From contig CAZIYD010000002.1 of assembly GCA_964543375.1 (NCBI GenBank), positions 7,354-71,353 of the forward strand: a stretch of DNA of 64,000 nt, read 5' to 3'. Positions within the stretch are counted from its first letter, which is position 1; each line of letters starts with the position of its first letter. Shown one piece after another: positions 9,084 through 57,282 of this stretch. The stretch comes from an uncultured Muribaculaceae bacterium (lineage in GTDB: Bacteria; Bacillota_I; Bacilli_A; RF39; UBA660). Under the pieces are notes generated by a model that saw only the letters and a list, made by a program, of their open reading frames with translations, had not been told where the DNA came from and ran no database searches. A program made the position numbers and the translations under genes.

Positions 9084-9095
9084 TTTGTTCCTCCA

Positions 9096-9176: not shown

Positions 9177-9178
9177 TA

Positions 9179-9258: not shown

Positions 9259-9262
9259 TTTA

Positions 9263-9291
9263 ATTATATTTTATAAGTTAAAATTAATCAA
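9263..9291 (-). promoter_or_regulatory. promoter of SRP RNA gene
   Basis: Minus strand TTGATT-17nt-TATAAT, ending about 7 nt upstream of the predicted SRP RNA 5' end. Confidence 0.5.
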
Positions 9292-9324
9292 CATTTATTG
9301 TTTTAATCTTTAGTTGGAGAGTTT

Positions 9325-9405
9325 ATAGTTTCACGTGAAACATAGTTTATTTTATCAAATTATTTCCCGGGAAATAATTTCCTCTTAATGTTTCACGTGG
9401 AACAT
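9325..9405. repeat. composite palindromic repeat unit, copy 2
   Basis: ATAGTTTCACGTGAAACAT...ATTTCCCGGGAAAT...ATGTTTCACGTGGAACAT. Ends 2 nt from the gyrA stop codon and lies just upstream of the ffs promoter. Confidence 0.75.
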
Positions 9406-9406
9406 A

Positions 9407-18028: not shown

Positions 18029-18036
18029 ATTTACCT

Positions 18037-18375
18037 CTAAAGATTTTTTAATAAATCAACAAGTTCATTTTCTTTTTCTCTATAATCTAAATTTAAGATT
18101 AAACTTCTTGCTATTATTATGTAATCCAATTTTTTTAATTTTTCTCTGTTATTATCAATTATATTTTTTAATTGACGTTTGATTTTATTTCTAACCACTG
18201 CTATTCCTATTTTTTTGGGAATAGATATACCAACTCTATATTTATCTTTTTTTTTGTCTATATAATATATTACATAGTACTTATTTTTTAATAATTTCCC
18301 GTTTTTTATTATGTTATTAAAATCTTCATTAGATTTAACTATATTTATTTTTTTCATTAATACTCCACATAACAA
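18037..18375 (-). CDS. rnpA: ribonuclease P protein component
   Basis: 112 aa. Basic protein with KYRVGISIPKKIGIAVVRNKIKRQLKN (RNR motif region). Follows rpmH. Confidence 0.92.
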   Translation of the reverse strand: MLCGVLMKKINIVKSNEDFNNIIKNGKLLKNKYYVIYYIDKKKDKYRVGISIPKKIGIAVVRNKIKRQLKNIIDNNREKLKKLDYIIIARSLILNLDYREKENELVDLLKNL

Positions 18376-18378
18376 AAA

Positions 18379-18395
18379 ACCACTAAAGTGGTGTT
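18379..18395 (-). terminator. hairpin plus U-run between rpmH and rnpA (partial terminator/attenuator)
   Basis: Minus strand ACCACTTTAGTGGTTTTTTGTT: 6-bp stem ACCACT/AGTGGT followed by a U-run. A partial terminator at this position is known in Bacillus rpmH-rnpA. Confidence 0.4.
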
Positions 18396-18524
18396 CTATT
18401 TAGTTAATTTTTTTCTTCCTTTTTTTCTTCTAGCTGAAACAACACCAGAATCTGCTTTTTTTCGAGCAAAGAATCCATGTATCTTTTTAGCTTTAGATTT
18501 ATTAGGTTGATATGTTCTTTTCAT
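18396..18524 (-). CDS. rpmH: 50S ribosomal protein L34 (ORF absent from the supplied track)
   Basis: Manual translation [42 protein letters not shown] (42 aa) is a canonical L34. RBS GGAGGAAGT precedes the ATG. Located at oriC upstream of rnpA. Confidence 0.9.
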
Positions 18525-18540
18525 ACTTCCTCCTCTTCTT

Positions 18541-18816
18541 AAAACATTATAATTATAAAGGTTAAGCATTTAAAAGTCAATTAAAAAATTATAAACATAT
18601 TAACATACTTGTTGATTAAAAATAATAGTTGTTAATTACAAAAAATATATGATTTTGTGGATAAGTGTATTCTTTTACTATAAAAACTAATAATTAGTTG
18701 TTATTAACTCTGTGGATAAGTTGTTATTAACTTGTTATTTATTATTTTGTTGTTTAATTTTTGAAGAAAATGATTTACAATATAGTTAAATTGTTTGAAA
18801 GTAGGAGGTAAATTTT
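18541..18816. promoter_or_regulatory. oriC region upstream of dnaA with DnaA boxes
   Basis: Two perfect DnaA boxes (TGTGGATAA, the complement of TTATCCACA) at 18657-18665 and 18711-18719, AT-rich flanks and the dnaA promoter region. Confidence 0.75.
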
Positions 18817-20166
18817 ATGGATGAAATAAAATTATGGGAAAATTTTTTAAATTTAATTAAAGATAAAATATCTCCTATATCATATGATACTTGGTTTAGT
18901 GATACAAAATTACATAAAATAGAAAATAAAAAGATATTTATTATAGTTCCCATGAACATTCACAAAAAAAATATTCAAGAAAATTATTCAGATTTATTAA
19001 AAGAAACTATTAACTCTTTAACAGGAACTAATTTTGAATTTATATTTTTATTAGAAGAAGAAATCAATGTTAAAGATGTAAACAATGTAGAAGAGGGTGT
19101 CCCTTTTAATAATCCTATACAAGCTAATTTAAATCCTAATTATACTTTTGATACTTTTGTTATTGGAGAAACTAATAGAATGTCATTTACTGCTGCTTTT
19201 GCGGTTGCAGAAAGACCGGGAAAAGCATATAATCCACTATTTTTATATGGTAGTAGTGGTCTTGGAAAAACTCATTTAATGCAAGCTATTGGAAATTATA
19301 TAATTGAAAATACTAATAAAAAGGTTTTATATATAACAAGTGATAAATTTAAATCAGATTTTATAGCAATAAATAAGAGAAAACATGATGAAAATAATAT
19401 AGAATATGTTGATTCTTTTAAAGAAAAATACAGAAATATAGATGTATTAATAATAGATGATATACAATTTCTAGCAGGCGCTACCGAAAGTCAAACAGAA
19501 TTTTTTCATACATTTAATGAACTTCATCAAGAAGGAAAACAAATAATAATTTCTTCAGACAGATCTCCAGATGATTTAAAATTACTAGAAGAACGTTTAA
19601 GAACTAGATTTAACTGGGGACTTGCAGTAAATATATTTCCACCTGATTATGAACTTAGAATTGAAATATTAAAGAAGAAGTTATCTGTTCACGATATAGC
19701 TAGACCTATAAAAGAAGATGTTCTTGTATTTATTGCTACCAATTGTGCTTCAGATGTAAGAAAGTTAGAAGGAGCATTAAATAGATTATTTGCTTATACA
19801 GCAATGTTTAATAAAGAAATTATAGATATTGATGTTGCTAAAGAAGCCTTAAATGATTTTTTAAGTAGTACTGAATATATAAAAAATAATATTCAAAAAA
19901 TTCAAAAAATTGTAAGTGATTTTTATCAAATAACCGTTGAAGATTTAAATTCTAAAAAAAGAAATAATAAGGTTGCTTTTCCTAGACAAGTAGCAATGTA
20001 TTTATCTAGACAATTAACAGATGAAAGTTTTCCTAGAATTGGTATAGAATTTGGGGGAAGAGATCATACAACGGTAATACATGCATGTAATAAAATTGAA
20101 CAAGAAATTAAAAATAATAAAGAATTTAAAAATACAATAGAGTTGTTGAAAAAGAAGTTAAAATAA
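18817..20166 (+). CDS. dnaA: chromosomal replication initiator protein DnaA
   Basis: 449 aa. AAA+ Walker A GSSGLGKTHL, sensor motifs, C-terminal DNA-binding helix VAMYLSRQLTDESFPRIGIEFGGRDHTTVIHA. Confidence 0.97.
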   Translation: MDEIKLWENFLNLIKDKISPISYDTWFSDTKLHKIENKKIFIIVPMNIHKKNIQENYSDLLKETINSLTGTNFEFIFLLEEEINVKDVNNVEEGVPFNNPIQANLNPNYTFDTFVIGETNRMSFTAAFAVAERPGKAYNPLFLYGSSGLGKTHLMQAIGNYIIENTNKKVLYITSDKFKSDFIAINKRKHDENNIEYVDSFKEKYRNIDVLIIDDIQFLAGATESQTEFFHTFNELHQEGKQIIISSDRSPDDLKLLEERLRTRFNWGLAVNIFPPDYELRIEILKKKLSVHDIARPIKEDVLVFIATNCASDVRKLEGALNRLFAYTAMFNKEIIDIDVAKEALNDFLSSTEYIKNNIQKIQKIVSDFYQITVEDLNSKKRNNKVAFPRQVAMYLSRQLTDESFPRIGIEFGGRDHTTVIHACNKIEQEIKNNKEFKNTIELLKKKLK

Positions 20167-20271
20167 TGTGTATAATAATAACAAAAATGGATTAAATAAA
20201 AGGAATAAATTGAATTATTCACATTATCCACTATAATAATAAAAATATAATAAAAAAGAAAGGAATATAAA
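20167..20271. promoter_or_regulatory. dnaA-dnaN intergenic AT-rich region with a DnaA box-like site (second oriC half / DUE candidate)
   Basis: TTATCCACT (8/9 match) at 20225-20233 within >85% AT sequence. Confidence 0.45.
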
Positions 20272-21390
20272 ATGAATTTTATAATAAAAAAAGAAATATT
20301 TTTAGAAAACTTAAACAATGTATCGAAAGCCATCTCATCAAAAAACATAATACCTATATTAGGAGGAATTAAATTAGATTTAGATAGTAATGGATTATCA
20401 CTAACTTGTAGTGATAATGAAATAACTATTAGAAGTTTTATAGAAAAAAAATACATAGATAAAATAAATACAAAAGGAAGTATTGTAATATTAGGTAGAT
20501 ATTTTATAGAATTAATTAGAAAAATACCTTGTGATACTATAGAAATAGTTACAGATGGATTAAATTTAACTATAAATACAAAAAATGGAGAATATAATTT
20601 AAATGGTATGAACCCAGAAGAATTTCCAGATAAAACTTTAGAATTAGTAGAAAATCCTATAAAAATAGATAAAAATGTAATAAAAAACATAATAAATCAA
20701 ACATCATTTGCAATATCAAATCAAGAATCTCGTCCAATATTAACGGGTATAAATATCAAAATCAAAGATAATAAAATGGAATGTGTAGCAACAGATTCTT
20801 ATAGACTTGCTAAAAAAATGCTAAAAATTGAAGAAAATATAAAAGAAGAAGTAAATATAGTAATACCTGGAAGAAATTTAATAGAACTATCCAAAATAAT
20901 AAATGATGAACCAGAAAAAGTAGAATTTCATATTTTTTCAAGTAATGTTTTATTTAAATTTGATAATATCTTATTTCAATCTAGATTATTAAATGGAACT
21001 TATCCAGATACTTCAAAATTAATAAAATTAGATTCTTTAGTAAATATAACTGTTAATACAGAAGAATTATATAATTCAATAGATAGAGCTTCTCTTTTAA
21101 CTAATGAAAAAGATAAAAATGTAATAAAAATGGAATTAAAAGAAAAAGAGTTAATAATAAGTTCAACATCTCAAGAAATAGGTAATATAGAAGAAAAGAT
21201 AGAAATAGAAAAAAATAATGATACAAATATAGAAATATCATACTCTTCTAAATATATGATGGAAGCACTTAGAACTATAAAAAGTCAAAAAACGGAAATT
21301 CATATAGGTGGCGAGATAAAACCTATAATATTAAAATCCACAGAAGATGATAATTTAATTCAATTAATAGTTCCAATAAAAACTTTTTAA
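20272..21390 (+). CDS. dnaN: DNA polymerase III beta sliding clamp
   Basis: 372 aa. Three-domain beta-clamp pattern, N-terminus MNFIIKKEIFLENLNNVSKAI. Conserved position after dnaA. Confidence 0.95.
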   Translation: MNFIIKKEIFLENLNNVSKAISSKNIIPILGGIKLDLDSNGLSLTCSDNEITIRSFIEKKYIDKINTKGSIVILGRYFIELIRKIPCDTIEIVTDGLNLTINTKNGEYNLNGMNPEEFPDKTLELVENPIKIDKNVIKNIINQTSFAISNQESRPILTGINIKIKDNKMECVATDSYRLAKKMLKIEENIKEEVNIVIPGRNLIELSKIINDEPEKVEFHIFSSNVLFKFDNILFQSRLLNGTYPDTSKLIKLDSLVNITVNTEELYNSIDRASLLTNEKDKNVIKMELKEKELIISSTSQEIGNIEEKIEIEKNNDTNIEISYSSKYMMEALRTIKSQKTEIHIGGEIKPIILKSTEDDNLIQLIVPIKTF

Positions 21391-21450
21391 TAAATATTGT
21401 TAAATTATAAAAAAAATATTATAATCTAACTTTAGAAATCAGGTGATTTT

Positions 21451-45240: not shown

Positions 45241-45810
45241 ATGGAAAGAGGAAAAAATTCGCAAGTTATAATCATTGGAATATTGGCGGTTGCCTTGTTG
45301 GTTATGTCAGTAGGTTATGCTGCAGCATTTAACACAACTTTAAACATTAATGGTACAGCTACTGCTAAAGCTGCAAAGTGGGATGTTAGTTTTGATACTG
45401 CAAGTTATGCAGAATCAACTGGAAGCGTACAAGCTACAAATCATAATGTTACTGGAACAACTGCATCTTATACGATTACATTGACAAAACCCGGCGATTT
45501 TTATGAGTTTTCTGTAAACGCTGTTAATGGTGGTACTTTTGATGCTAATCTTACAAAGGTTACTTTAAGTGCTCTTAGCGCTGCTCAAGCTGAATATATT
45601 GAATATTCATTAAATTATGCAGGAACAGAGTATACAGCAACAACTGATAGTCTATCTGTTTTATTGGCTGCAAAAAATGATGGTGACACCGATACTGCTA
45701 CAGTAAAAGTTAGAGTTGAATATGTTCAACCTGCTGATGCTGCAAATTTGCCAACATCTGATCAAACAATAACTTTGACAGCTGCATTGGATTACACACA
45801 AGCACAATAA
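45241..45810 (+). CDS. secreted protein with SipW-cognate (TasA/camelysin-class) signal peptide; Ala/Thr-rich candidate fibre subunit
   Basis: 189 aa. N-terminal h-region then VGYAAAF (cf. TasA GGGTWAAFND, CalY GGGTFAFFSD). Strong RBS TAAGGAGGTAAG. Composition differs from neighbours (GC-richer, Ala/Thr/Gly-rich). Confidence 0.6.
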   Translation: MERGKNSQVIIIGILAVALLVMSVGYAAAFNTTLNINGTATAKAAKWDVSFDTASYAESTGSVQATNHNVTGTTASYTITLTKPGDFYEFSVNAVNGGTFDANLTKVTLSALSAAQAEYIEYSLNYAGTEYTATTDSLSVLLAAKNDGDTDTATVKVRVEYVQPADAANLPTSDQTITLTAALDYTQAQ

Positions 45811-45841
45811 ATACATAATATATAAGTGAAAGGCAAAGATT

Positions 45842-46981
45842 ATGAAAAAGAACGAAACAACTATATACTTTGTTTTGGGATTATTAATAATCTTTGCCTT
45901 TATATATTATTTTTTAGTGCAAAATAATTATAATAGTTTTATTGCAGAAACAATATATTTGATTTTTAATGGAGCAATTGCTATATTTTTATATTTTAAG
46001 TTTAATTTAAAACAAAAAAATAAAAAGTTAAATAAAGTAACTACTAGAACTATTATAATAGTTTTTATGAGCACTTTATTGGCAATATATTTAAGTGGAT
46101 TATTTTTGGGTTTTTCTAGGAGTGTATTTTTATTAAAACCATATAATATATTTCTTAACACTTATCCAGTAATACTTTCTGCTTTATTTTTAGAAGTAAT
46201 AAGATATGAGGTTGCTCAAAACTCAAGAAACAAGAACACTCTATTAATATTATTAACAATATATTTTATAGTTTTTAGTTTGGTTTTAAGTGCAAAAACA
46301 TATAGTTTTCATAACAATGAACAAATATTTAGATTTTTTTGTATATATTTTTGTCCGATTTTTGCAAAAGAAATGTTATACAGTTATTTATCATATCATG
46401 TTGGAATCAAATCAACATTTGTCTCAAGAATCATATTTGATTTATACCCGTATGTGTTTCCAATATATCCAAATTTAGGAGAATATTTGAATTGCATAAT
46501 GTTTTTGGTGATCCCTTATATTATATATGCTAAAACTAGTAATTATGTTAAATATGTTGAACAAAATAAAGAGTATAATAGTATTAATAGATGGGTAATG
46601 TTTGTACCATTATTTTTGTTTTTTTTAATAATATTTATTTTATCGTTTGGAATCACTAAATATAAGTTAATTGCTATAGCTACTGGTTCAATGAAGCCGG
46701 TATATGATAGAGGCGATACAATAATATATGAAAAAATGGGAGCAAATAATATATATGTTGGGGAAGTGTTGGCTTTCAAATATAATGGTGTTACTATTAC
46801 TCATAGAGTAGTAAGTAAGTATAAAAATGGAGAAAAGTATATTTTTAAAACAAAAGGTGATGCTAATAAAGATATTGATTTCTTTGAAGTAACAGAAAAC
46901 GAAGTTTTGGGGAAAGTAGAATTTGTTATTCCTTATATTGGGTTCCCATCAATTTTAATTAAAGATTTACTTGGTAAATAG
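45842..46981 (+). CDS. SipW-type (archaeal/ER-type, S26B) signal peptidase I fused to an N-terminal polytopic membrane domain
   Basis: 379 aa. C-terminal about 110 aa contain IAIATGSMKPVYDRGD (catalytic Ser in the SM motif) and VTITHRVV (catalytic His), as in SipW. N-terminal about 260 aa comprise 7-8 predicted TM helices. Confidence 0.7.
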   Translation: MKKNETTIYFVLGLLIIFAFIYYFLVQNNYNSFIAETIYLIFNGAIAIFLYFKFNLKQKNKKLNKVTTRTIIIVFMSTLLAIYLSGLFLGFSRSVFLLKPYNIFLNTYPVILSALFLEVIRYEVAQNSRNKNTLLILLTIYFIVFSLVLSAKTYSFHNNEQIFRFFCIYFCPIFAKEMLYSYLSYHVGIKSTFVSRIIFDLYPYVFPIYPNLGEYLNCIMFLVIPYIIYAKTSNYVKYVEQNKEYNSINRWVMFVPLFLFFLIIFILSFGITKYKLIAIATGSMKPVYDRGDTIIYEKMGANNIYVGEVLAFKYNGVTITHRVVSKYKNGEKYIFKTKGDANKDIDFFEVTENEVLGKVEFVIPYIGFPSILIKDLLGK

Positions 46982-46992
46982 GGTGATAAAAC

Positions 46993-48081
46993 ATGTCAAA
47001 AAATAAATTATTTTTAAAATATTTTTGTTTGTGTATAATAATAGTAATATTAATGCTTTTTAGTTTTTTTATGTTTAAAAAAGGTTTTAGCAATAAAGAA
47101 CAATATGTATTGTCTTACAATAAAACTTCATTAATTGATTACAAAGTGTATTTAAAAGATAATGATTTTTTTGATGTTTCGTTTTTAACTAAAGAAGAAT
47201 TAATAAGAAATAATAGATCAATAATTACAAATTTGATAGATTATTTAGAAATTAATTATAAATATGATATGAAATATTCTGATGTAGTAAAAGGAGAATA
47301 TACATATTATGTTGAATTAATATTAAAAGCTAATAAAATGAATAGTGAAGATAAAAACTATTGGGATAAAACATATCAAATAACAGAACCTAAGAAATTA
47401 ATAATTAATAATGAAAAAAATTTTGGTATTATTCAAAATGTTAAAATAGATTATGAAAAATATAATAATATTTTAGATGATTTTAAGAAGCAACAGGGTT
47501 TGGCGACAAATGGGAATTTAGAAGTAGCTCTCGTTGTTGAGTCTAATGTTAAAAACGAAAAAATAACAAAAAAAATAAATTTAAATAATAGAGAAAGTTT
47601 TAATATACCTCTTTCACAAATGGCGGTAGATGCATCTATAACTTTAGATGAAAAAGGGGAAAAAATAGGTAGTGTTAATGAAACGATTAAATCAAATGAT
47701 TTTAAATTTACAAAATATAAAATAATTGCCCTACTATCAAGTTCTTTGTCGATTACTTTTTTAATAGTATTGATAATTTTAATTAGGTACGATAGAACCT
47801 TGCGCGAGTATAGTATTAAATTAAAAAAAATATTAAGTGGTTATGATGATATTGTCGTAAATGTAAATGTACTTCCCGATGTGAGTAAATTAAACATTAT
47901 ACATGTTGAATCTTTTGCTGAGTTGTTAAATGCTCATGGTGAAGTTAGAATGCCCATTAATTGCTATATAAGTAAAAGAAAAAATAAAGCAACTTTTATA
48001 CTCATAAATGAACCTATTGCGTGGGTATATATATTAAAAGATAAAAATTTGAAAAAGAGTGATATAGATGAAAAATATTAA
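46993..48081 (+). CDS. two-TM membrane protein of unknown function (candidate assembly/anchoring factor)
   Basis: 362 aa. N-terminal TM CLCIIIVILMLFSFFMF, large middle domain, second TM IIALLSSSLSITFLIVLIILI, cytoplasmic tail. Overlaps the next gene by 14 bp. Confidence 0.5.
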   Translation: MSKNKLFLKYFCLCIIIVILMLFSFFMFKKGFSNKEQYVLSYNKTSLIDYKVYLKDNDFFDVSFLTKEELIRNNRSIITNLIDYLEINYKYDMKYSDVVKGEYTYYVELILKANKMNSEDKNYWDKTYQITEPKKLIINNEKNFGIIQNVKIDYEKYNNILDDFKKQQGLATNGNLEVALVVESNVKNEKITKKINLNNRESFNIPLSQMAVDASITLDEKGEKIGSVNETIKSNDFKFTKYKIIALLSSSLSITFLIVLIILIRYDRTLREYSIKLKKILSGYDDIVVNVNVLPDVSKLNIIHVESFAELLNAHGEVRMPINCYISKRKNKATFILINEPIAWVYILKDKNLKKSDIDEKY

Positions 48082-50398
48082 AAAAACATTTTTGTTATTA
48101 CTTTTTTTAGTTCTTTTATCATTTATTACTGTTGGATATGCATATTATACTAAATTATTGAATATTTCTGGTGTTGTTACGATTCCGAATTATGGAAAAG
48201 TATTAATTACCCAAATTAATATGATAGACAGTATGAGTGTAACCGAAAATACACCCACTGTTGTAAATGGCTTAAATTTTGATTTTAATTTAACTATTTC
48301 AGGAAACACATCACAACATTATATTACATATGCTGTTACTCTATCAAATAATTCTGTAGAGGATGTTGTTTATATAGATGCAAATATTAATTGTAACATT
48401 GTACCAAATAGTGGTGATGATACGGCAACATATAATATAGAATTAACGGGTATAAATAGTGGTGATATTATACCGGCAGGAGAGAGTGTAGTAATTCAAT
48501 CTAAAATTATATTTGAAGTAAGTAATCCAAATAATATATATGTAGCAACTGGTAGTATATCTAATGATACCAGTACTGATCAAAGTGGAACATTATTGGG
48601 TAGTATAACTGGTTCAAATACAGGGGACTTAACTGGCAGTAATACGATAACTGATTTTAATTTAAATGTTATAAATTCTTATTCTGTTAATAAAAACTTT
48701 AAAATATTTGTTACTAATTCTAGTAATTTTGAAATATGTGATGAAAACGGAACAGCAAATATTAGTTTTGATATAAATGCTAATTCTCAAGAAAATTATA
48801 CATTCTATATTAAGAAAAAAGATGGAGCGTTATTTCCGAATAATACGGAAAGTTTAAATTTAACATTAAAATCTATTGGTGTACCTAATTGTTCTTTAGG
48901 AACTATAACCATTAGTGTTGACCCATCGCCTGTAGCAGACGCTGAAGCCCCGATTATAAGTAGTGTTACAGCAAACCAAGATACAACTGTTGGGAATGTT
49001 ACTGTTGCTTGGAATGCACAAGATGACTCAACTATTACAAGTTTTACAGTAAATGTTTATAATAGTAGTGGAGTCTTACAAAAAACTGTTAATACATCTG
49101 GAGAAACAACAACTGTTATTAATAATTTAGCTGATGGCACATATTATTTTACTGTTTTTGGCACAGATACACTTGGTAATACTGCAACAGTGCAAGAAAT
49201 TGGCAATGCAACCACTTCTTCTGGGCACGCATCAAGGTCTAGTAATTTGATTTGTAAATGGACTTATACTGTTAATACATCCGGACTAAAAAATATGTCT
49301 TCTAACGGAACTTCAACGGCCAAAAAGGGAACTACATATACAGCAACTTTAACTGCTGCAAGTAACTATACTTTGCCAAACACTATAACTGTAGTAATGA
49401 ATGGTGTAACATTAACTTCTGGAAGCGGTTATTCATATGTTCAGAATACCGGAAAGTTAGACATATACAACGTTAATGGCGATATAAGTATATCTGGTAC
49501 AGCGACATCAAACACTTGTTTAGCAAAAGGAACTTTAATAAAAACATATAATGGATATAAAAAAATAGAAGATATATATTATGATGATTTATTAGAGGTG
49601 TATGATCATATAAGAGGAGTTTTTACCTATAGTTATCCAATATGGATAGAAGAAGCAAAAGAAACAGATAATTATATTTTAGTAACTTTTTCAGATAATA
49701 GTAATTTAAAAGTAGTGTCTTCACATTCGGTATTTGATGTTGATAAAAAAAGATATGTAGAAGTAAATGGTGAATTAAAAGTAAATGATCGAGTATACAA
49801 ATATAATAATGGAAAATTAGATATAGTAACAGTAAAAGGAATTAAAAAAGTTTTTGAAAACACCAAATATTATAATGTTGTAAGTTCCTATTATTATAAC
49901 ATTATAGCAAATAATCTTTTAACTACAGATTCAACATCGAGCATTTCTAACATATATGGTTTTAAAGATAATGCGATATATGATGATAATTTCTACAACA
50001 TTTCTAATGGACCCAAATTAGAATATAAAGATGTTAAAATGATCCCATATTATTTATATAAAGGACTTAATTTACAAAACGCTTTACCTTTAGTTAACAA
50101 TGGATTTAATTATGATTTCTTAACAACATTTTTAAAATTAAAAACTAAAAATCCCATTCAAATTAATAATGTTAACCATTGGATATTTAATGTTAATGGG
50201 GAAAAAATGTTAGTATCTGAAGGTAGTGTTCAAAAAGTGCCATTTACGCTTGATAAATATTATACTAAAGATAATGCTAAAAAATCATTGTTTGGATTGA
50301 GAAAACAAAAATATTATGATACTAGTAGTAATACATATTATTATTCTGGAGATAAAATAAAAATAAATCATAGTGTGTATTTAGAAAAAATAGATTGA
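48068..50398 (+). CDS. large secreted protein: SipW-cognate signal peptide, Ig/FN3-like modules, Hint (bacterial intein-like) domain and unknown about 240-aa C-terminal module
   Basis: 776 aa. Signal region with VGYAYYTK. FN3-like segment (AEAPIISSVTANQDTTVGNVTVAWNAQDDSTITSFTVNVYN...GTYYFTVFGTD). Hint block A CLAKGTLIKTYNGYKKIEDI, block B-like VVSSHSVFDV and block G-like YNIIANN. C-terminal region with no recognisable motif. Confidence 0.6.
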   Translation: MKNIKKTFLLLLFLVLLSFITVGYAYYTKLLNISGVVTIPNYGKVLITQINMIDSMSVTENTPTVVNGLNFDFNLTISGNTSQHYITYAVTLSNNSVEDVVYIDANINCNIVPNSGDDTATYNIELTGINSGDIIPAGESVVIQSKIIFEVSNPNNIYVATGSISNDTSTDQSGTLLGSITGSNTGDLTGSNTITDFNLNVINSYSVNKNFKIFVTNSSNFEICDENGTANISFDINANSQENYTFYIKKKDGALFPNNTESLNLTLKSIGVPNCSLGTITISVDPSPVADAEAPIISSVTANQDTTVGNVTVAWNAQDDSTITSFTVNVYNSSGVLQKTVNTSGETTTVINNLADGTYYFTVFGTDTLGNTATVQEIGNATTSSGHASRSSNLICKWTYTVNTSGLKNMSSNGTSTAKKGTTYTATLTAASNYTLPNTITVVMNGVTLTSGSGYSYVQNTGKLDIYNVNGDISISGTATSNTCLAKGTLIKTYNGYKKIEDIYYDDLLEVYDHIRGVFTYSYPIWIEEAKETDNYILVTFSDNSNLKVVSSHSVFDVDKKRYVEVNGELKVNDRVYKYNNGKLDIVTVKGIKKVFENTKYYNVVSSYYYNIIANNLLTTDSTSSISNIYGFKDNAIYDDNFYNISNGPKLEYKDVKMIPYYLYKGLNLQNALPLVNNGFNYDFLTTFLKLKTKNPIQINNVNHWIFNVNGEKMLVSEGSVQKVPFTLDKYYTKDNAKKSLFGLRKQKYYDTSSNTYYYSGDKIKINHSVYLEKID

Positions 50399-50436
50399 TA
50401 CTTCAATCTATTTTTTATTAATATTAAATATAACTC

Positions 50437-50467
50437 ATTGTTAAAAAGGGTTTTCTATGTTATAATT
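50437..50467 (+). promoter_or_regulatory. candidate promoter upstream of ORF 50482
   Basis: TTGTTA-17nt-TATAAT read directly in the 83-bp gap after the Hint-domain gene. Confidence 0.4.
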
Positions 50468-50481
50468 TTTATGGTGAAAAT

Positions 50482-50979
50482 ATGAATAAAATAGTAGGTA
50501 GGGTATTAGTGTGCGTGTATTTATCTTTTGTGGTTATCTTATCACTATATTTATTTATGTATAGTCGTTTTGGAACATCTTCCATTGGAAAATACGTTGT
50601 TTTTAATGCTGAAAATATTAAATCATTTAGCAATGGCTCTTTAGTTGTGTCAAAGCACGAAGAAAAAGAACTAAATATAGATGATTCTATATTGTTTTAT
50701 AATGTTTATTCAACTAAAAAAGGAGTTTTAGAACAAAAAATAGTTTCTAAAGAAAAACTAAATGAAAAAGAAATAACATACGGTTTAGATAATAATAAGT
50801 TTGTTTCGAGTTCTTATGTTATAGGAAGTGTATCAAAATCTAATGCTATACCACTTCTTGGGCACATATTTAAAGTGTTGTCATCTTCTTTGGGCTATTT
50901 AATTTTTGCGCTGATTCCTACATTGTTTATGTTTGTTCTACAAGTTAGACAACTAACTAAAAAGTATAACATTAGGTGA
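50482..50979 (+). CDS. SipW-like membrane protein lacking catalytic Ser and His (predicted inactive pseudo-peptidase)
   Basis: 165 aa with N-TM and C-TM like SipW. Aligns with the canonical SipW at 55526: VVFNAENIKSF vs IFTVATGSMEP (Ser replaced), GVLEQKIVSKE vs GKVITHRVIEI (His replaced by Lys). C-terminal TM LGYLIFALIPTLFMF vs IGFYLLIVIPVAILI. Confidence 0.45.
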   Translation: MNKIVGRVLVCVYLSFVVILSLYLFMYSRFGTSSIGKYVVFNAENIKSFSNGSLVVSKHEEKELNIDDSILFYNVYSTKKGVLEQKIVSKEKLNEKEITYGLDNNKFVSSSYVIGSVSKSNAIPLLGHIFKVLSSSLGYLIFALIPTLFMFVLQVRQLTKKYNIR

Positions 50980-50982
50980 TTT

Positions 50983-51897
50983 ATGTTTGAAAAGTTAAAG
51001 AACAATAAATTAATCCTTCTAATAATTATAGTTGCTTCTCTTGGATTTTTAACTACTTTTGGAAGGTTTGTATACAATGAAATAAAGAAGAATTATTTCT
51101 TAACCCAAAATTTTTATTTTGAAAGCGACAAACTAAAAGAAAAACAAGTTTTATATAAAATAAATAACTATAATGGTGTAGATAGTTATGATATAGTTAT
51201 AAATATGAATAGTATAAAGAACAACAAAATAATAGCGAGCGAAGATATATCTTATGACATATCATATAATTGCTCTAGTAACGCAAATTGCAGTATAACA
51301 AAAACAAATGGTGTTATATATAAAGAAACAGGAACAGACTACTTTGTAATATCTATAAGTCCAAACACTACTCTTACTGATGGGAATGAAATGCTTTTGG
51401 AATTAATAGCAAGTTCTACTTCTCCATACGAAAAAACATTAAGCGCAAAGTTTCAGTTAGTAGTAGGAAACTATGGACTATCTTATGAGATAAATGATTC
51501 TGTAAATAGTCCTTATTTAGAATTAAAAGTAACAAACACTTTGGACTATTATAAAGTAAAGACAGCGTTTGGAACTTACGCCATAGATGACAAAATAGAT
51601 ATAGAAACCTATCTTACTCTAAGTGATAATGATAAAGCTAAGTGTGCATCTGCAATAATAAACTTAAGTTTTGATCCGAGTGTTGTAATATTTGATAATG
51701 CAACAGGAGTAGATGGAGAGGTTACTAATCAAACAACAACAAACATCGGAGGACATAACTATATAAATGGTATATCATTTAAAGTAGATGCAATATCATC
51801 AAGTGTAGTTAGATTTTATAAGAAAAACTCAAATAATAATTACACATATCCAATAACCAATCCAACATCTATAATCGGTGTAACATATACTTTGTAG
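50983..51897 (+). CDS. secreted/anchored beta-rich protein of unknown function
   Basis: 304 aa. N-terminal TM/signal LILLIIIVASLGFLTTFGRFVYNE (weak SipW-cognate-like TTFGRF), Ser/Thr/Asn-rich beta-type sequence. Confidence 0.5.
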   Translation: MFEKLKNNKLILLIIIVASLGFLTTFGRFVYNEIKKNYFLTQNFYFESDKLKEKQVLYKINNYNGVDSYDIVINMNSIKNNKIIASEDISYDISYNCSSNANCSITKTNGVIYKETGTDYFVISISPNTTLTDGNEMLLELIASSTSPYEKTLSAKFQLVVGNYGLSYEINDSVNSPYLELKVTNTLDYYKVKTAFGTYAIDDKIDIETYLTLSDNDKAKCASAIINLSFDPSVVIFDNATGVDGEVTNQTTTNIGGHNYINGISFKVDAISSSVVRFYKKNSNNNYTYPITNPTSIIGVTYTL

Positions 51898-51907
51898 GAG
51901 GTAAATA

Positions 51908-52876
51908 ATGAAATACAATATAGTAACAGAATATATTAATTTTGCGAAGTCTTGTGTAAACAAATATCTTAAAAAGATATTAGGTAAGTATTACAATCAA
52001 GAATATGCGAGCAGACTATTAAATGTATATATGAATTCTAGATATTTTGATATTTATTTATCTTCACAATCAAATTTAGAAGTAGATATTAGAGAAAATT
52101 TAAAGAGTTCTGCGGGTAGAATAAAGAATGAAGAAAACAAAACAGAACTAGAAAACTTGATTAAAGTTTTTGAATATATATTTTATTTTGATAACGTAGT
52201 AGAGTGCCCGTCTATAAATGAAAAAATTGATGAAATAGAAGCGTTTAGGAAAGACTCCCTAGGTATAAATAAGAACAAAAAATTTAATCAAGATCTTTTT
52301 GATACTATAAGAGATGATTTAATAAAGAAAAAAGAATACTTAGATACTGTGGAAAGTAAAAAGTTTGATTTTGATTGTACTTTAACTAATATTAAAAACT
52401 TATATGATGTGACTTTGACTCATAATTTAAAATTTCCTGTAGTATATAACTCTACAGTAATAGATAAGGTTTTTAACTCAAAAGAATTATCACAAAGAAA
52501 GGCAGTAGTAGAGTTTTCTTATGCTGCACTTAAAGTTTTAAAGGATACTATAAAGGGAAATTTTGAATACAAATATTTAGTTCAATATCCATCTGGAATA
52601 AGTAAAAAGAAAACATTAAGTAAAAAGATGTTTAGTATATTAGATAATGATATACTTAAAGATAAGATATTTATAAAGATAAATTATGATGACTTTGATA
52701 AAGAAAAAGATGAAATATATAGTTACATGAGAGAGGGATATAAGTTTGTAGTAATTTTAGAAAAGAATATAAATGTTGAAAAGATAGAATTATTATCTAT
52801 ATTTAAATATATAATGATGGATAAAAACAAAAGGATAGAAGGGTTAAATAAATTTAAAAACTTAATATTTATTTAA
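51908..52876 (+). CDS. cytoplasmic protein of unknown function, first gene of the McrB-like operon
   Basis: 322 aa, no TM or signal. 10 bp upstream of the McrB-like GTPase gene. RBS GGAGGTAAATA. Confidence 0.5.
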   Translation: MKYNIVTEYINFAKSCVNKYLKKILGKYYNQEYASRLLNVYMNSRYFDIYLSSQSNLEVDIRENLKSSAGRIKNEENKTELENLIKVFEYIFYFDNVVECPSINEKIDEIEAFRKDSLGINKNKKFNQDLFDTIRDDLIKKKEYLDTVESKKFDFDCTLTNIKNLYDVTLTHNLKFPVVYNSTVIDKVFNSKELSQRKAVVEFSYAALKVLKDTIKGNFEYKYLVQYPSGISKKKTLSKKMFSILDNDILKDKIFIKINYDDFDKEKDEIYSYMREGYKFVVILEKNINVEKIELLSIFKYIMMDKNKRIEGLNKFKNLIFI

Positions 52877-52885
52877 GGGGTATTT

Positions 52886-54406
52886 ATGGAAACATTTTTA
52901 AGATTTTTATATGAGATGCTTGCTAACTTCTTTGGAGGTTTAATTCATATATTTAAAGCAATATATGAGTCTTTTAGCATGACTTTTAATATAAAAAGTT
53001 ATATTTCCATAATAAATCACTATAAAGGAGATTTTTCTACTCCCGAATGGTTGTTAGTTGGCCTTGTAATAATAATAATGTTAGCTATAATAGTTGGAAT
53101 AATAGTATTAATAATTGTACTAGTTAGAAAGTATATGAGAATAAGAAAAACTTTGGTAGAACAAGAAACACTGCTTGAAGAAGTGGGAAATTTAAATAAA
53201 AAAGTTTTAAGTTTATCTAAAGAGAAAGATGAAATACTCGCTATGAAAGTATCTCAACTAGGATTAAAACCAGGAGAATCGCCTACCGAAGAATTACCTG
53301 AGGGAGAAGAAGTATTATCTGATGAAAACATAAGATTCTCTAAATTGCATCAAATTGATAAAGATTATATAAATTATAAAGTTCAAAATTATGGGAATAC
53401 ATTTACTTTGCCAGAACTTGTAGATATGTTTAGAAACTTTGCTGCAGCTCAACTTGGTTTATTCTACAAAGAAGAGATGATAAGATTATTTATATCTGCT
53501 CTAGCCTCTACAAAGTTAATAATACTTCAAGGTATATCTGGAACAGGTAAAACATCTTTGGCGTATGCTTGGGGAAAGTTTTTAGATAATGACTCTTGTG
53601 TTGCATCAGTTCAACCATCTTGGAGAGATAGAACAGAATTATTTGGTTACTTTAATGAGTTTACTAAAAAGTTTAATGAAACAGATGTGCTTAAAGAAAT
53701 ATATACAGCGGGTTATACCGATGATATATATACAGTAATACTAGATGAGATGAACATATCTAGAGTTGAGTACTATTTCGCAGAAATGTTATCTATATTA
53801 GAAATGCCGAATAAAGATGAGTGGATAGTTGAACTAGTATCTAGCCCATGGGATAGCGACCCTAAATATGTTAAAGGTGGTAAATTAAAAATAGTACCTA
53901 ATGTTTGGTATATAGGTACTATAAATAATGATGACTCTACATTTATGGTAACGGATAAGGTATACGATAGAGCGATGCCTATTGATATAAATGAAAAGGG
54001 TCAAGAATTTGATGCTAAAGACATTCCGGCACAACACATAAATTATACTTATTTAGATAATTTATTTGAAACTGCTATGAATACATATAGCATATCTGAT
54101 GAAACATTAAAGAAAATAGAAGAAATGGACGATTATGTAATACAACACTTTAGAATAGCATTCGGTAATCGTATTGTAAGTCATATGAAAAAATTTGTTC
54201 CAGTATATATGGCCTGTGGTGGTGATGAAATAGATGGGGTTGATTACTTCGTTGCTAGAAAAATACTTAGAAAATTTGAACAATTAAATATATCTTACAT
54301 AAGAGATGAAGTTGATGGATATGTAGATTTTCTTAATAAGACATTTGGAAAAGACAAGATGAAAGAATCTATAGAATATCTAATTAGACTTAAGAAAAAT
54401 ACATAG
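52886..54406 (+). CDS. membrane-anchored McrB-family (AAA_5) GTPase
   Basis: 506 aa. Walker A ILQGISGTGKTSLA, Walker B TVILDEMN followed by the McrB signature ISRVEYYFAEMLSILE (cf. DEINRANISKIFGELITLLE) and PNVWYIGTINNDDSTF (cf. McrB NFYIIGTMNTADRS). N-terminus has TM helix LLVGLVIIIMLAIIVGIIVLIIVLV, positive-inside RKYMRIRK, and a coiled-coil instead of a DNA-binding domain. Confidence 0.7.
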   Translation: METFLRFLYEMLANFFGGLIHIFKAIYESFSMTFNIKSYISIINHYKGDFSTPEWLLVGLVIIIMLAIIVGIIVLIIVLVRKYMRIRKTLVEQETLLEEVGNLNKKVLSLSKEKDEILAMKVSQLGLKPGESPTEELPEGEEVLSDENIRFSKLHQIDKDYINYKVQNYGNTFTLPELVDMFRNFAAAQLGLFYKEEMIRLFISALASTKLIILQGISGTGKTSLAYAWGKFLDNDSCVASVQPSWRDRTELFGYFNEFTKKFNETDVLKEIYTAGYTDDIYTVILDEMNISRVEYYFAEMLSILEMPNKDEWIVELVSSPWDSDPKYVKGGKLKIVPNVWYIGTINNDDSTFMVTDKVYDRAMPIDINEKGQEFDAKDIPAQHINYTYLDNLFETAMNTYSISDETLKKIEEMDDYVIQHFRIAFGNRIVSHMKKFVPVYMACGGDEIDGVDYFVARKILRKFEQLNISYIRDEVDGYVDFLNKTFGKDKMKESIEYLIRLKKNT

Positions 54407-54414
54407 GTGTTCTT

Positions 54415-55557
54415 ATGGATGATTTGAAGTTATTTGATTTATACAATAGATCTAACGAAAAAAAGAAGGGGGATTTTTGGAAGAATGTAGATGCTTCACT
54501 TCAAGTAGAACACAATTTTGAAAAAAATATAATAGATGATAAATGGTTACTTATGATGGAGGAGACTGTAAGATATTTAGATAATATCTTAAGAAACCCC
54601 AATAGATTTATAATAAATGAAGAAGAAATAGTAAAGATAGAACTTGCAAGAAGAATAACTGTAGACAGTATAAAACATTTATCTAAGAATACCAATTTTA
54701 TACAAGATATAGACGAAGAAAGTGGAGATGTAAAGCCATCTAAAATTTTAAATATAAATAAGGAAGAAAGCTTTAATACGTATGAAAATAGATTTATATA
54801 TAGTTTGATAAAAAACATGAGAATCTATATAGATATGAAAAAAAGAGATATGGATCTTGGTGCTAATGATAAAAGCGATAAGATAATGAATTATGAGGGA
54901 AGAACTAAGGTTGGAAAAGAAAATGTAAATATAAATGTATCTCTTAGATCAACACTGAATAAGGCAGATGATGAGAATTCTTTAGAAAAAAGAATAGAGA
55001 GATTGGAACTTAGAATAAGTGATTTAATGAATACTGATGTTTATAGGACTATAGATAAGCTTAGAATAAGTTTAGTTAACTCTCCAATAAAGAAAACAAA
55101 CTTAATATTAAAAAACACAAACTTTCAGTATGCTGTTAAACTTTGGAACTTTATCCAAGAAAATTTAAAAGATGAAACAAAAGTAGAAGCAGGGAACGAA
55201 ATTTTAAAAGATGATGAAACATTGAAAGATTTCATGGATGAGATATTTATGCTTAACTACTTCGTTGTTAATACGCTTGAAAAAGATGAACCAGAAGAAG
55301 AAAAACAAAAAAAAGTTTCCGAAGTATTAATACAAAACTTAATACAAAAGTTAATATTAACTAACAAGAACATGACAAAGGGTGATTTGAGCAAGGCTGT
55401 ATCAGAACAATATAAATTAATAAAAGATCAGACTCTTGCAACCGAAAAAGAAATCCAAGAAATATTTAAATTAGCAATAAACGAGTATAATAAATCTATA
55501 AGTAATCTAAAACTAAGGAGTACAAATGCAAAAAATAAAAGAAAACCAAATTCTTAA
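54415..55557 (+). CDS. McrC N-terminal-domain-like (DUF2357-like) partner protein, no recognisable nuclease motif
   Basis: 380 aa. Helix NTYENRFIYSLIKNM aligns with the conserved McrC N-domain segment LANRIIKSTLAIL. No hD.K / PD-(D/E)xK motif found in the C-terminal half. 8 bp downstream of the GTPase gene. Confidence 0.45.
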   Translation: MDDLKLFDLYNRSNEKKKGDFWKNVDASLQVEHNFEKNIIDDKWLLMMEETVRYLDNILRNPNRFIINEEEIVKIELARRITVDSIKHLSKNTNFIQDIDEESGDVKPSKILNINKEESFNTYENRFIYSLIKNMRIYIDMKKRDMDLGANDKSDKIMNYEGRTKVGKENVNINVSLRSTLNKADDENSLEKRIERLELRISDLMNTDVYRTIDKLRISLVNSPIKKTNLILKNTNFQYAVKLWNFIQENLKDETKVEAGNEILKDDETLKDFMDEIFMLNYFVVNTLEKDEPEEEKQKKVSEVLIQNLIQKLILTNKNMTKGDLSKAVSEQYKLIKDQTLATEKEIQEIFKLAINEYNKSISNLKLRSTNAKNKRKPNS

Positions 55558-56107
55558 ATATTTGTGGAAAACAATAAAAATAATTGTGACATTATTTATT
55601 TTAATTATTATAGGTATAATAATAACTCAAAGAATATTTAATAATAATGTTTCTGTTTTGGGCTACAGGATATTCACGGTTGCAACTGGAAGTATGGAAC
55701 CTGAATATAAGGTTATGGATATACTATTTGTAAAAGAATCAAAAGAATCTCAAATAAAAGTAGGAGATGATGTAGTATATTTAGGAAAAGGTGGAACTTT
55801 TGATGGAAAAGTAATAACGCACAGAGTAATAGAGATAGAAAAAGAAAATGATATAGTGTCATTTCATACAAAGGGTATTGCAAATGATATAGAGGATCCA
55901 ATTGTCTACTATGATCAAATATACGGTAAAGTAATATACAAAGGAGTAGTACTTAGTTTTGTTAATAAAATAATAAACAACCCAATAGGCTTTTATTTAC
56001 TTATAGTAATACCCGTTGCAATCTTAATAACGCTCGAAATAATAGATAGAAAAAAAGAAAAAGATGAAAAAATAATAGAAGAGGAAATATTAGATTTAGA
56101 TGAATAA
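55526..56107 (+). CDS. sipW: signal peptidase I, SipW type (S26B)
   Basis: 193 aa. N-TM, RIFTVATGSMEPEYKVMD (Ser-Met), KVITHRVIEI (His), C-terminal TM IGFYLLIVIPVAILITL plus basic tail: canonical SipW architecture. RBS CTAAGGAG. Confidence 0.8.
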   Translation: MQKIKENQILKYLWKTIKIIVTLFILIIIGIIITQRIFNNNVSVLGYRIFTVATGSMEPEYKVMDILFVKESKESQIKVGDDVVYLGKGGTFDGKVITHRVIEIEKENDIVSFHTKGIANDIEDPIVYYDQIYGKVIYKGVVLSFVNKIINNPIGFYLLIVIPVAILITLEIIDRKKEKDEKIIEEEILDLDE

Positions 56108-56702
56108 AAAAAATGATGCAGTTATAAAAACTTTAAAGAAAAGTATGCGTCTGAAAGTTTTACTTTTATTAGCAATAATATTGACTTTCAATACTTTTGC
56201 GTGGTTTATATATTCATCTGCTGTATCTAATAGCATAACTACATCAGTTAGAGCTTGGAAGATAGAATTTGAAAATGATAGCCAAACAACGCAATATATA
56301 GAGTTTGATATAGATGATTTATATCCGGGAATGCCAGAATATAATAACTATATAAACGTAGTTAATTATGGTGAAACAGCGGCAACACTAACTTATGAAA
56401 TTATGAGCTTCAAGGTTTTGGGAACCGAATATACTAATCCGCCAGAAACAACTGGTGATCTTGAAAATATTATTGAAAATAATTACCCATTTAAAATAAA
56501 TCTAAATCTTACTAATTCAGACTTAACTCCAGAAAGTGGATCTTCAGAGTTTACAATAAATGTGAAATGGCCATTTGAAAGTGGGGATGATGAAGAAGAT
56601 ACCCTATGGGGACATAGAGCATATACTTATAAGCAAGAAAATCCAACTTTAAAGCAAATATCTATTAATATAAAACTTACTGCAAATCAAGTTAATCCGT
56701 GA
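56100..56702 (+). CDS. secreted protein with SipW-cognate signal peptide (paralog of 45241 and 56692 genes)
   Basis: 200 aa. Signal LLLLAIILTFNTFAWFIYSS, then RAWKIEFEND matching AKWDVSFDTAS (45241 gene) and ARWQISIND (56692 gene). Confidence 0.6.
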   Translation: MNKKNDAVIKTLKKSMRLKVLLLLAIILTFNTFAWFIYSSAVSNSITTSVRAWKIEFENDSQTTQYIEFDIDDLYPGMPEYNNYINVVNYGETAATLTYEIMSFKVLGTEYTNPPETTGDLENIIENNYPFKINLNLTNSDLTPESGSSEFTINVKWPFESGDDEEDTLWGHRAYTYKQENPTLKQISINIKLTANQVNP

Positions 56703-57282
56703 TTTGTTTGAACTTTATAGCAACATTTAAAATTGCTTTCCCTTGATTTATCGCAGCTGTAGTATCTGCGCTGTTGTTCATGTTCTCCTCATCGAAATCT
56801 TCCCATGTTATATAAACTCTTATACTGTTAGTCCTGTTTGTATTTGTTATTAGTATGTCTTTATCTATATTGGTCATGTTACCATTTACTGGAATAATTG
56901 CACCCCCATTTTCAGAATAACCAGTAACCTTTAAATCAGAAACTTCACTACTTGTCGATATACTTGTTGTTATTCCATAATTGAATGATACATCGACGTT
57001 TGTATAGTTTAAAATTAAATCAAAATAACCTAAAGATTGTGGAGCAATTACACCGTCCTTTACATTTGGATTATTCAATAAAGTTGGAGTTATTACATTA
57101 GTAATATATGAATCTGTAATTATATCTTGATCATTTATTGATATTTGCCATCTAGCAATGTTTACACTTGCTTGTCCTTCTGCCTCCGTGTTATATTTAG
57201 CATATGTTTCCTGCACAAAAGATATTAAAACGAAAAGAGATAAGAATGCAACTACTAATTTTAAATTTTTAAAGTTAAACAT
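56692..57282 (-). CDS. secreted protein with TasA-class signal (paralog of 45241 and 56100 genes), convergent and overlapping with 56100 gene
   Basis: 196 aa. MFNFKNLKLVVAFLSLFVLISFVQETYAKYNTEAEGQASVNIARWQISIND, beta-rich C-terminus. 3' ends overlap by 11 bp with the plus-strand gene. Confidence 0.5.
   Translation of the reverse strand: MFNFKNLKLVVAFLSLFVLISFVQETYAKYNTEAEGQASVNIARWQISINDQDIITDSYITNVITPTLLNNPNVKDGVIAPQSLGYFDLILNYTNVDVSFNYGITTSISTSSEVSDLKVTGYSENGGAIIPVNGNMTNIDKDILITNTNRTNSIRVYITWEDFDEENMNNSADTTAAINQGKAILNVAIKFKQITD

Follow-up and report, generated by a model that had tools for sequence, protein, structure and literature searches.

A conserved SipW-type signal peptidase homologue without catalytic residues, and its possible accessory role beside active SipW in an uncultured low-GC bacterium

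What can a signal peptidase homologue contribute to a locus when the residues that would do the cutting are gone? The question is raised by a gene (50482-50979, + strand) in a 64,000-nucleotide (nt) stretch of contig CAZIYD010000002.1 (positions 7,354 to 71,353 of the forward strand; assembly GCA_964543375.1, an uncultured Muribaculaceae bacterium), which is called the window here. The gene, pseudo-SipW, encodes a 165-amino-acid (aa) protein with two transmembrane (TM) segments, a homologue of the SipW type (S26B) of signal peptidase that lacks the catalytic Ser, His and Asp. Its closest active relative is a SipW encoded in the same operon (55526-56107, + strand), which carries GSMEP, THRV and D124 and scores 77.2 bits against TIGR02228 (cut-off 51.85). 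An original prediction, made from the letters of the window, had described the product as a catalytically dead SipW paralog next to its substrates. We consider it somewhat better than an even bet (probability of about 0.55) that pseudo-SipW is a non-catalytic accessory subunit working with SipW in the biogenesis of surface or fibre proteins.

Homology to SipW was examined at several levels. BLASTP of pseudo-SipW against SipW 55526 gave a weak match (20% identity, E 0.002). We aligned the family profiles with hhalign, using 110 full-length pseudo-SipW members (alignment A3) and 25 SipW sequences (alignment A2), and obtained a match of 98.9% (E 2e-17) over 160 columns and residues 1-161, in agreement with the earlier claim that the two proteins align along their whole length. 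Trimmed alignments were used as a control for transmembrane composition. The outer domains alone matched at 95.6% (E 1.1e-8) and brought box C and the 'IG' strand into register; the C-terminal segments alone matched at 94.8% (E 5e-8). As the outer domain alone still matches in hhalign, the SipW signal is not mere TM composition. Hidden Markov model (HMM) matches between the pseudo-family and SipW were reciprocal among the open reading frames (ORFs) of the loci examined, and the pseudo-family HMM matched SipW 55526 at 2.4e-10. The NCBIfam SipW model was matched by 64 of the 110 members (best 4.7e-14) and TIGR02228 by 58, sub-threshold in both cases; the bacterial-type model was matched by six.

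The predicted structure was consistent with the same origin. Foldseek, run with an earlier AlphaFold2 model (10 sequences; predicted local distance difference test, pLDDT, 78.4), ranked SEC11A/C first and second and SipA sixth; the scores were moderate, and generic small barrels (Tudor, BAH) followed closely behind. Profile searches of PDB sequences with the 10- and 110-member profiles gave no significant match, and the link to SEC11/SipA stands at the fold level only. Pseudo-SipW might be an unrelated bitopic membrane protein, similar to SipW through its TM composition and a generic small beta barrel, an explanation with which the lack of a Pfam match and of a significant PDB profile match would agree. 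We consider it extremely improbable, given the match of the isolated outer domains with both landmarks in register and the strength of the NCBIfam SipW matches. Independent lines converge, and the homology of pseudo-SipW to the S26B SipW type is established, as is a likeness to the S24/S26 peptidase domain in homology and fold, with SEC11A as the top fold match.

The layout of the protein is that of SipW. Hydropathy placed hydrophobic segments at approximately residues 8-27 and 136-158, and a second AlphaFold2 model (110 relatives, pLDDT 91.4) consisted of a helix (3-25), nine short beta strands (33-123) and two further helices (126-134 and 136-162). The N-terminal TM helix (50503-50562, + strand; approximately residues 8-27, within the predicted helix 3-25) aligns to the N-terminal TM of SipW and is preceded by a basic tail, MNKIVGR, that is cytoplasmic by the positive-inside rule. 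The extracytoplasmic beta domain (50563-50856, + strand; residues 28-125) is, judging from the outer-domain hhalign, the remnant of the peptidase domain and keeps box C 'GD'. It is followed by a juxtamembrane helix and the C-terminal TM (50860-50961, + strand) with the motif G127-x7-S135-x2-G138-[YF]-L-x5-P146 and by a basic cytoplasmic tail. Basic residues at both ends are consistent with a predicted N-in/C-in topology and an outer beta domain. Hydropathy, the secondary structure of the model and the alignment, which spans both TMs, agree with the proposal that the protein shares with SipW 55526 an N-terminal TM, a catalytic-type domain and a C-terminal TM.

Catalysis by SipW-type (S26B) peptidases depends on a Ser in box B, a His in box D and an Asp in box E; in the family of the window's SipW (the 25-sequence alignment) S56, H99 and D124 are invariant. 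None of the three was found in pseudo-SipW. At the nucleophile, the full-length hhalign placed 'F-NAEN--I' opposite 'FTVATGSME', with Ser56-Met57 falling in a 2-residue deletion, while the outer-domain-only hhalign placed N45 opposite Ser56; the window protein has no Ser at the nucleophile position in either register. The former nucleophile loop, N42-A43-E44-N45-I46 (50605-50619, + strand), contains no Ser and belongs to the most variable stretches of the family. Both hhalign runs agreed in setting Q85 (50734-50736, + strand) opposite the general-base His99, so that 'EQKI' of pseudo-SipW matches 'THRV' of SipW. N105 (50794-50796, + strand) is opposite the invariant Asp124, and the box E segment 'KGIAND' (SipW 116-121, with the invariant G117 and N120) corresponds to a 6-residue deletion in pseudo-SipW. 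The original prediction had paired FNAEN with TGSME and QKIV with THRV. The loss of Ser and His holds, but these registers were off by one to three residues, and proper alignment brings a gap or N45 and Q85, instead of Ser and His, to the catalytic positions. The box E Asp, which had not been mentioned, is a third lost residue.

The losses extended over the family. In the columns aligned to the SipW HMM, His was present in none of 110 sequences, Ser in 14 and Asp in 32. Independently of any alignment, 56 of the 110 members had no histidine anywhere in the outer domain. The motifs [GS]SMxP and [TS]HR were absent from all of the best 150 family representatives; no column of A3 exceeded 5% His, and no outer-domain column exceeded 70% Ser. 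By these sequence criteria pseudo-SipW, without Ser, His and box E Asp, should be unable to cut signal peptides and would not be an enzyme.

An active peptidase could still be hidden in the protein if the catalytic set had been relocated, for instance to a Ser-Lys dyad of S109/S110 and K58. All of nine close orthologues have both S109 and K58, and Ser-Lys dyads exist in the sister families S26A and S24 (PMC12445088). Across the 110 members, however, position 109 is Ser in 68%, position 110 is Ser in 65% and position 58 is Lys in 54%, and no polar residue of the outer domain reaches 90% conservation. Furthermore, S109/S110 and K58 align to a structural strand of SipW (YYDQIYG) and not to the active site. 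A cryptic peptidase is very unlikely, and the S109 and K58 dyad was rejected on family-wide conservation.

Scores against curated models were low. The window protein reached 15.9 bits against NF046067 (NCBIfam SipW; cut-off 190), below the curated threshold, and matched neither TIGR02228 nor Pfam Peptidase_S26 or S24; there was no Pfam match at E <= 1. Since it lacks the three catalytic features tested and falls short of the score cut-offs, pseudo-SipW falls outside the curated signal peptidase I family. A Pfam scan of the window protein and the 110 members recognised no family and gave scattered sub-threshold S24/S26 matches only. Neither Pfam nor NCBIfam has a model for the pseudo-SipW family, no member carries a name in its source, and PADLOC returned nothing for pseudo-SipW.

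The gene is intact. The ORF (50482-50979, + strand) starts with ATG, ends with TGA and is uninterrupted over 165 aa, and its relatives usually measure about 150-200 aa, so the window's protein is full length. The 83 bases directly 5' of the ORF are non-coding. They contain a promoter-like site, TTGTTA-17-TATAAT with TG in front (50438-50466, + strand; 10/12 matches), located 16 nt 5' of the start codon; the weight of this site is limited, since promoter-like sites were no more numerous in the region than in shuffled sequences. A ribosome-binding site, GGTGA (50473-50477, + strand), lies 4 nt 5' of the ATG. Further 5', an AT-rich perfect hairpin with a U-run (50385-50416, + strand; fold -13.7 kcal/mol, z -7.55 vs. 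shuffles) comes right after the stop of a 776-aa gene. It is a likely intrinsic terminator and parts the upstream cluster from the pseudo-SipW operon. A terminator consensus scan did not pick up this hairpin, as its stem G-C pairs are below the criterion of the scan. The downstream gene begins 3 nt past the pseudo-SipW stop. Because of the hairpin, the promoter-like site and the ribosome-binding site on the 5' side, and of the next gene 3 nt after the stop, pseudo-SipW probably heads its own transcription unit and is not a frameshift fragment of a larger gene. In near-identical copies (P0280-P0285) the public gene calls are often 155/156 aa, with a start about 9 codons downstream, likely GTG at V10; the start at ATG 50482 has a better ribosome-binding site than this downstream start.

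Relatives were abundant under a sensitive search. A word-indexed search found nine relatives only (49-98% identity), while an exhaustive profile search of 1.84 billion cluster representatives found 612 clusters (clustered at 50% identity) at E <= 1e-3, 171 of them at <= 1e-10. Nei-Gojobori dN/dS was 0.114 against a 98%-identical copy and 0.155 against a 77%-identical copy; more distant pairs were saturated at synonymous sites. Pseudo-SipW is under purifying selection and is selectively maintained. One might suspect a sequence without function, either a duplicated sipW in decay or a mis-called ORF, from the missing family model and from the rate at which pseudo-SipW evolves, which exceeds that of its neighbours (26-64% identity to the window, vs. 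68-83% for an NTPase of the same operon). This explanation is hardly credible. All orthologues have intact ORFs of similar length, dN/dS is low (0.11-0.16), relatives fall into hundreds of 50% identity clusters, the fold is predicted confidently, and the position in the operon is conserved, with a promoter and terminator context of the gene's own. A pseudogene or frameshift fragment was rejected on dN/dS and ORF integrity, and it is effectively refuted. In these respects the original prediction was borne out: the 165-aa product is an intact, membrane-anchored paralog without the Ser-His dyad, and it is conserved in related genomes. Purifying selection, conserved synteny and the catalytic columns, where neither Ser nor His nor Asp is conserved, all support it.

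The conserved part of the protein is not the old active site. The best-conserved block, residues 127-146, comprises the juxtamembrane helix and TM2, where key positions of the motif reach 88-98%; this TM2 motif is common to SipW (G155, L159, P163). In the outer domain, box C 'GD' is kept (position 68 is Asp in 84% of the family), as is the 'IG' strand (G115, 90%). The most variable parts are the former nucleophile loop (42-53) and the former His segment (75-96). Constraint acts on the scaffold and on the membrane-embedded surface, rather than on the former catalytic centre. Long members of the family (up to 438 aa in total) were searched for fusions of pseudo-SipW to SipW, and no second peptidase domain was found; their extensions are low-complexity charged cytoplasmic tails. 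Among the tails of P0211, P0214, P0229 and P0251, some end in repeated 'MTEEEKKALIxAKLxSMTEEEKxALI', and others are Glu/Lys-rich or Thr/Lys-rich.

Gene neighbourhoods were compared across about a dozen loci (numbered L001 onwards). Gene order varies between them, and what stays constant, where enough flank was recovered, is that an active SipW-type gene lies no more than a few genes away from pseudo-SipW. Clusters with both pseudo-SipW and an active SipW, of one of three subtypes, are those of the window, L002, L003, L006, L007, L013, L014, L015 and L021. Three loci show pseudo-SipW, a protein of about 200 aa and then an active SipW of another subtype (L007, L014, L015). In L013, a 401-aa SipW with a cytoplasmic C-domain (8707-9912) is located directly 5' of pseudo-SipW, with no obvious structural subunit near this pair; the locus, that of a distant relative, also carries SpoVA genes. 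In L021 the gene next to pseudo-SipW is an active SipW fused to a homologue of a 322-aa protein of the window's operon (8783-10666). The order in L020 is a SipW-type gene (faint Peptidase_S24 match, cut by the end of the locus), a giant protein and pseudo-SipW, and the upstream gene is likely an active SipW. A motif, 'YELP.Y...L.LTY.I.Y', is present in the C-terminal domain attached to the SipW-type genes of L013 and L020 (1-272). The fusions in L021, L013 and L020 suggest that the attached module may work with SipW.

In the window, pseudo-SipW is followed by a 304-aa protein of secreted type (50983-51897), to which it is translationally coupled, a 322-aa protein (51908-52876) that has no N-terminal hydrophobic segment and is likely cytoplasmic, a 506-aa TM-anchored McrB-like AAA+ P-loop NTPase (52886-54406; PDB McrB, E 2e-4; PADLOC PDC-M26A, 3e-35), a 380-aa DUF2357 (McrC-N-like) protein (54415-55557; DUF2357 at 1.4e-12) and the active SipW, whose first 32 nt (55526-55557) are also the last of the DUF2357 gene. 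No nuclease domain was recognised in the NTPase/DUF2357 pair (52886-55557). The operon partner genes have orthologues in L002-L006, L014, L015 and L021; across the loci the NTPase is the most conserved gene (68-83% identity) and pseudo-SipW is among the least conserved (26-64%). Beyond SipW there are a 200-aa protein (56100-56702), a convergent 196-aa protein (56692-57282, minus strand) whose gene overlaps the previous one by 11 nt at the 3' ends (56692-56702), a 235-aa protein (57484-58191), a second 322-aa protein (58194-59162) and the start of a giant ORF with an N-terminal TM (59183-64000, + strand; >1,606 aa), which runs past the end of the window. The giant ORF contains many 'YGGxN'-type repeats. 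Giant-protein homologues of 2,216-2,654 aa adjoin pseudo-SipW in L001, L006, L007, L019 and L020.

Several proteins of the locus have an N-terminal TM followed by (T/G)-(Y/F)-A, read by eye as GYA/AAF, GYA/YYT, TFA/WF, TYA/KY and TYA/WF. These motifs, for which no curated model gave a match, look like SipW-type cleavage sites, which would make the proteins candidate SipW substrates. The small secreted proteins of the operon had no match to the TasA, camelysin, Peptidase_M73 or TIGR04088 models, and an alignment of eight of them found nothing in PDB or NCBIfam. Their assignment as TasA/camelysin relatives was rejected, as no model or profile matched.

What would a SipW-type protein do in this setting without cutting? 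We infer that pseudo-SipW binds precursors or SipW and that the products of the locus form a fibre or other surface structure. The retained membrane-embedded and juxtamembrane surface would bind SipW, or the signal-anchor of a secreted protein of the locus. Pseudo-SipW would then hold or hand over precursors, such as the small SipW-type secreted proteins or the giant protein, during surface-protein biogenesis. Two versions of such an accessory subunit can be distinguished. As a partner of SipW (version a), it would contact the enzyme or the signal peptide of the substrate through TM2 and the juxtamembrane surface, and it would modulate or extend processing, like the non-catalytic subunits of the eukaryotic signal peptidase complex or in the role proposed for DUF5305. 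As a SipA-like holder or anchor (version b), it would capture one precursor without cutting it. We lean towards version a, because the pairing with SipW is the sole invariant feature, the pair in L013 stands alone, and the conserved surface is common to SipW.

Version b, taken as an explanation of its own, dispenses with SipW contact altogether. Pseudo-SipW would be a client chaperone or membrane anchor similar to SipA. It would capture one precursor, for which the giant protein and the 304-aa protein are candidates, by its first beta strand or its uncleaved signal-anchor, and in this way a donor-strand fibre would be nucleated or anchored at the membrane. SipA provides a structural precedent and a fold match (PMC4049620). 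In all subclades a secreted-type gene lies directly 3' of pseudo-SipW (304 aa in the window and L002-L006, approximately 200 aa in L007, L014 and L015), the giant surface protein recurs beside it, and the variable former cleft could co-vary with variable clients. By contrast, the L013 pair has no recognisable structural subunit nearby, and the conserved part of the protein is the membrane segment common to SipW and not the cleft. We regard this explanation as the main rival, although an unlikely one.

Several points weigh against the accessory-subunit reading or against parts of it. The alignment of the nucleophile loop is ambiguous by about 2 positions, and approximately half of the closest orthologues have a non-conserved Ser nearby. 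The sample of loci for synteny is small. The status of the operon proteins as possible substrates rests on N-terminal motifs read by eye. As to the mechanism, the variable former cleft speaks against a conserved peptide-binding site, which would suit a SipW partner better than a SipA-like chaperone.

Comparison with described proteins placed pseudo-SipW nearest to SipW of Bacillus subtilis (TIGR02228, S26B), with which it shares full-length homology, the topology of N-terminal TM, outer domain and C-terminal TM, box C 'GD', the 'IG' strand and the TM2 motif G..G[FY]..L...P. Both are encoded in clusters of secreted surface proteins. By contrast, the outer domain of pseudo-SipW is shorter, with deletions of 2 (box B) and 6 residues (box E); Ser, His and box E Asp are missing, and the scores are far below the curated cut-offs. 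Terra et al. 2012 reportedly found a peptidase-independent role of B. subtilis SipW and mapped it to the C-terminus.

Inactive relatives are described from the bacterial Ser-Lys type. SipA of Streptococcus pyogenes has the signal peptidase (SPase) fold, but Asp and Gly stand in place of the catalytic Ser and Lys; the pili cannot polymerise without SipA, which was proposed to bind one of their components at the membrane (PMC4049620). Pseudo-SipW resembles SipA/LepA (S. pyogenes FCT loci, PDB 4N31), one of its top fold matches, in having the SPase fold without catalytic residues. SipA is encoded inside a surface-filament cluster; here the adjacent cluster is AbpX/Tafi-like (see below), and the operon of pseudo-SipW itself encodes proteins with SipW-type N-termini and a giant surface protein, none with a pilin-model match. 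SipA, however, comes from the Ser-Lys (S26A) type, while the pseudo-SipW family favours the SipW/archaeal-type models (64 and 58 vs. 6 of the 110 members). The pili that depend on SipA are sortase-assembled (PMC4049620), and no sortase family was found in scans of the locus proteins here. Pseudo-SipW is an independent loss of catalysis in a different branch from SipA.

SpsA of Staphylococcus aureus, an inactive paralog of SpsB, lacks two conserved catalytic residues and was reported as dispensable (PMC12445088). Like pseudo-SipW it is an inactive type I signal peptidase paralog; unlike it, its partner SpsB is a Ser-Lys enzyme. The genes of SpsA and the active SpsB are neighbours, which would be a parallel to the pairing of pseudo-SipW with SipW. 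With its single TM, SpsA belongs to the S26A type; it is not known to be part of an operon for a surface structure.

Non-catalytic partners of signal peptidases are also known from outside the peptidase family. DUF5305/TafG has been proposed as an accessory subunit of SPase I in TasA-like loci (PMC11821415, PMC12337348, bioRxiv 10.64898/2026.01.04.697558). It and the accessory subunits of the eukaryotic signal peptidase complex are, like pseudo-SipW, membrane proteins with an outer beta domain encoded or placed beside an S26B-type catalytic subunit. They are, however, non-homologous to the peptidase, whereas pseudo-SipW is a degenerate copy of the catalytic subunit. DUF5305 had no match in the window protein (Pfam, E <= 1) or in the 110 family members.

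The description of the region as a fibre locus was sustained in part. Directly upstream of the hairpin, the cluster 45241-50398 encodes a 189-aa subunit-like protein with a signal-type N-terminus (45241-45810), a polytopic SPase I of 379 aa (45842-46981, + strand; GSMKP, THRV, GDAN; TIGR02228 80.7 bits), a DUF5305 protein (46993-48081; 41.1 bits vs. cut-off 29) and, as its last gene, the 776-aa protein whose stop directly precedes the hairpin. The polytopic SPase I combines an N-terminal membrane domain with a SipW catalytic domain and is the second active SPase I of the region. Haloarchaeal Tafi and AbpX loci contain a dedicated SPase I, a DUF5305 accessory protein and pilin-like subunits (PMC11821415, PMC12337348, bioRxiv 10.64898/2026.01.04.697558), and multi-TM SPases have been described in such loci, with the polytopic architecture reported for abpX loci (bioRxiv 10.64898/2026.01.04.697558). 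The upstream cluster resembles the published TasA-like AbpX/Tafi loci, and its DUF5305 protein and polytopic SPase I support a fibre locus. For the pseudo-SipW operon itself the description is less well founded: its small secreted proteins match no TasA/camelysin model, and no pilin, TasA or camelysin model matched the products of the operon, that is, the proteins with SipW-type N-termini and the giant protein. The 776-aa protein has weak Hint/intein-N-terminal matches at residues 483-556 ('CLAKGTLIKT...'), a hint that this putative tip protein may contain an autoprocessing domain.

With a GC content of 26% and genes of Firmicute type (SpoIIIJ-type YidC, Noc-like, SipW), the window fits poorly with the name Muribaculaceae. 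The chromosomal origin region is located at 18000-21400, with dnaA (18817-20166) and dnaN (20272-21390) adjoining divergent yidC/spoIIIJ-type, mnmE, gyrB and gyrA genes. Near 18-20 kb the sign of the GC skew changes, and so does that of the gene strand.

What does the finding mean beyond this operon? Inactive signal peptidase homologues are otherwise known only from the bacterial Ser-Lys branch (SipA, SpsA), and in the searchable literature we found no description of an inactive S26B/SipW or Sec11-type paralog. The original remark that S26B pseudoenzymes are poorly documented therefore agrees with the literature and the databases, which hold neither a description nor a name for one. Pseudo-SipW represents an independent, much larger and unannotated pseudoenzyme family from the archaeal/ER-type SipW branch. 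Annotation pipelines leave the family unnamed, and naming by similarity should avoid 'signal peptidase I'.

Pseudo-SipW also points to about 11 genes that form a conserved and uncharacterised set in low-GC bacteria without cultures, as sampled in metagenome assemblies. In the widest and rather speculative interpretation, which we consider doubtful, pseudo-SipW would belong to an undescribed envelope machine of low-GC gut Firmicutes, as the subunit that binds signal-anchors without cleaving. The parts of this machine would be the active SipW, its dead paralog, the cytoplasmic module (fused to SipW in some genomes), the membrane McrB-like AAA+ NTPase and the DUF2357 adaptor, and together they would process, energise and anchor the giant (>2,200 aa) surface protein and small donor-strand-type subunits. 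If this were true, bacteria would have a counterpart of the multi-subunit signal peptidase complex, one that arose when the catalytic subunit was duplicated and a copy became inactive. The surrounding system (the membrane McrB-like NTPase, DUF2357 and the giant surface protein) may be more novel than pseudo-SipW. For the family, the pairing with SipW suggests that duplication and inactivation of the catalytic subunit is a recurring route to accessory subunits of dedicated signal peptidases.

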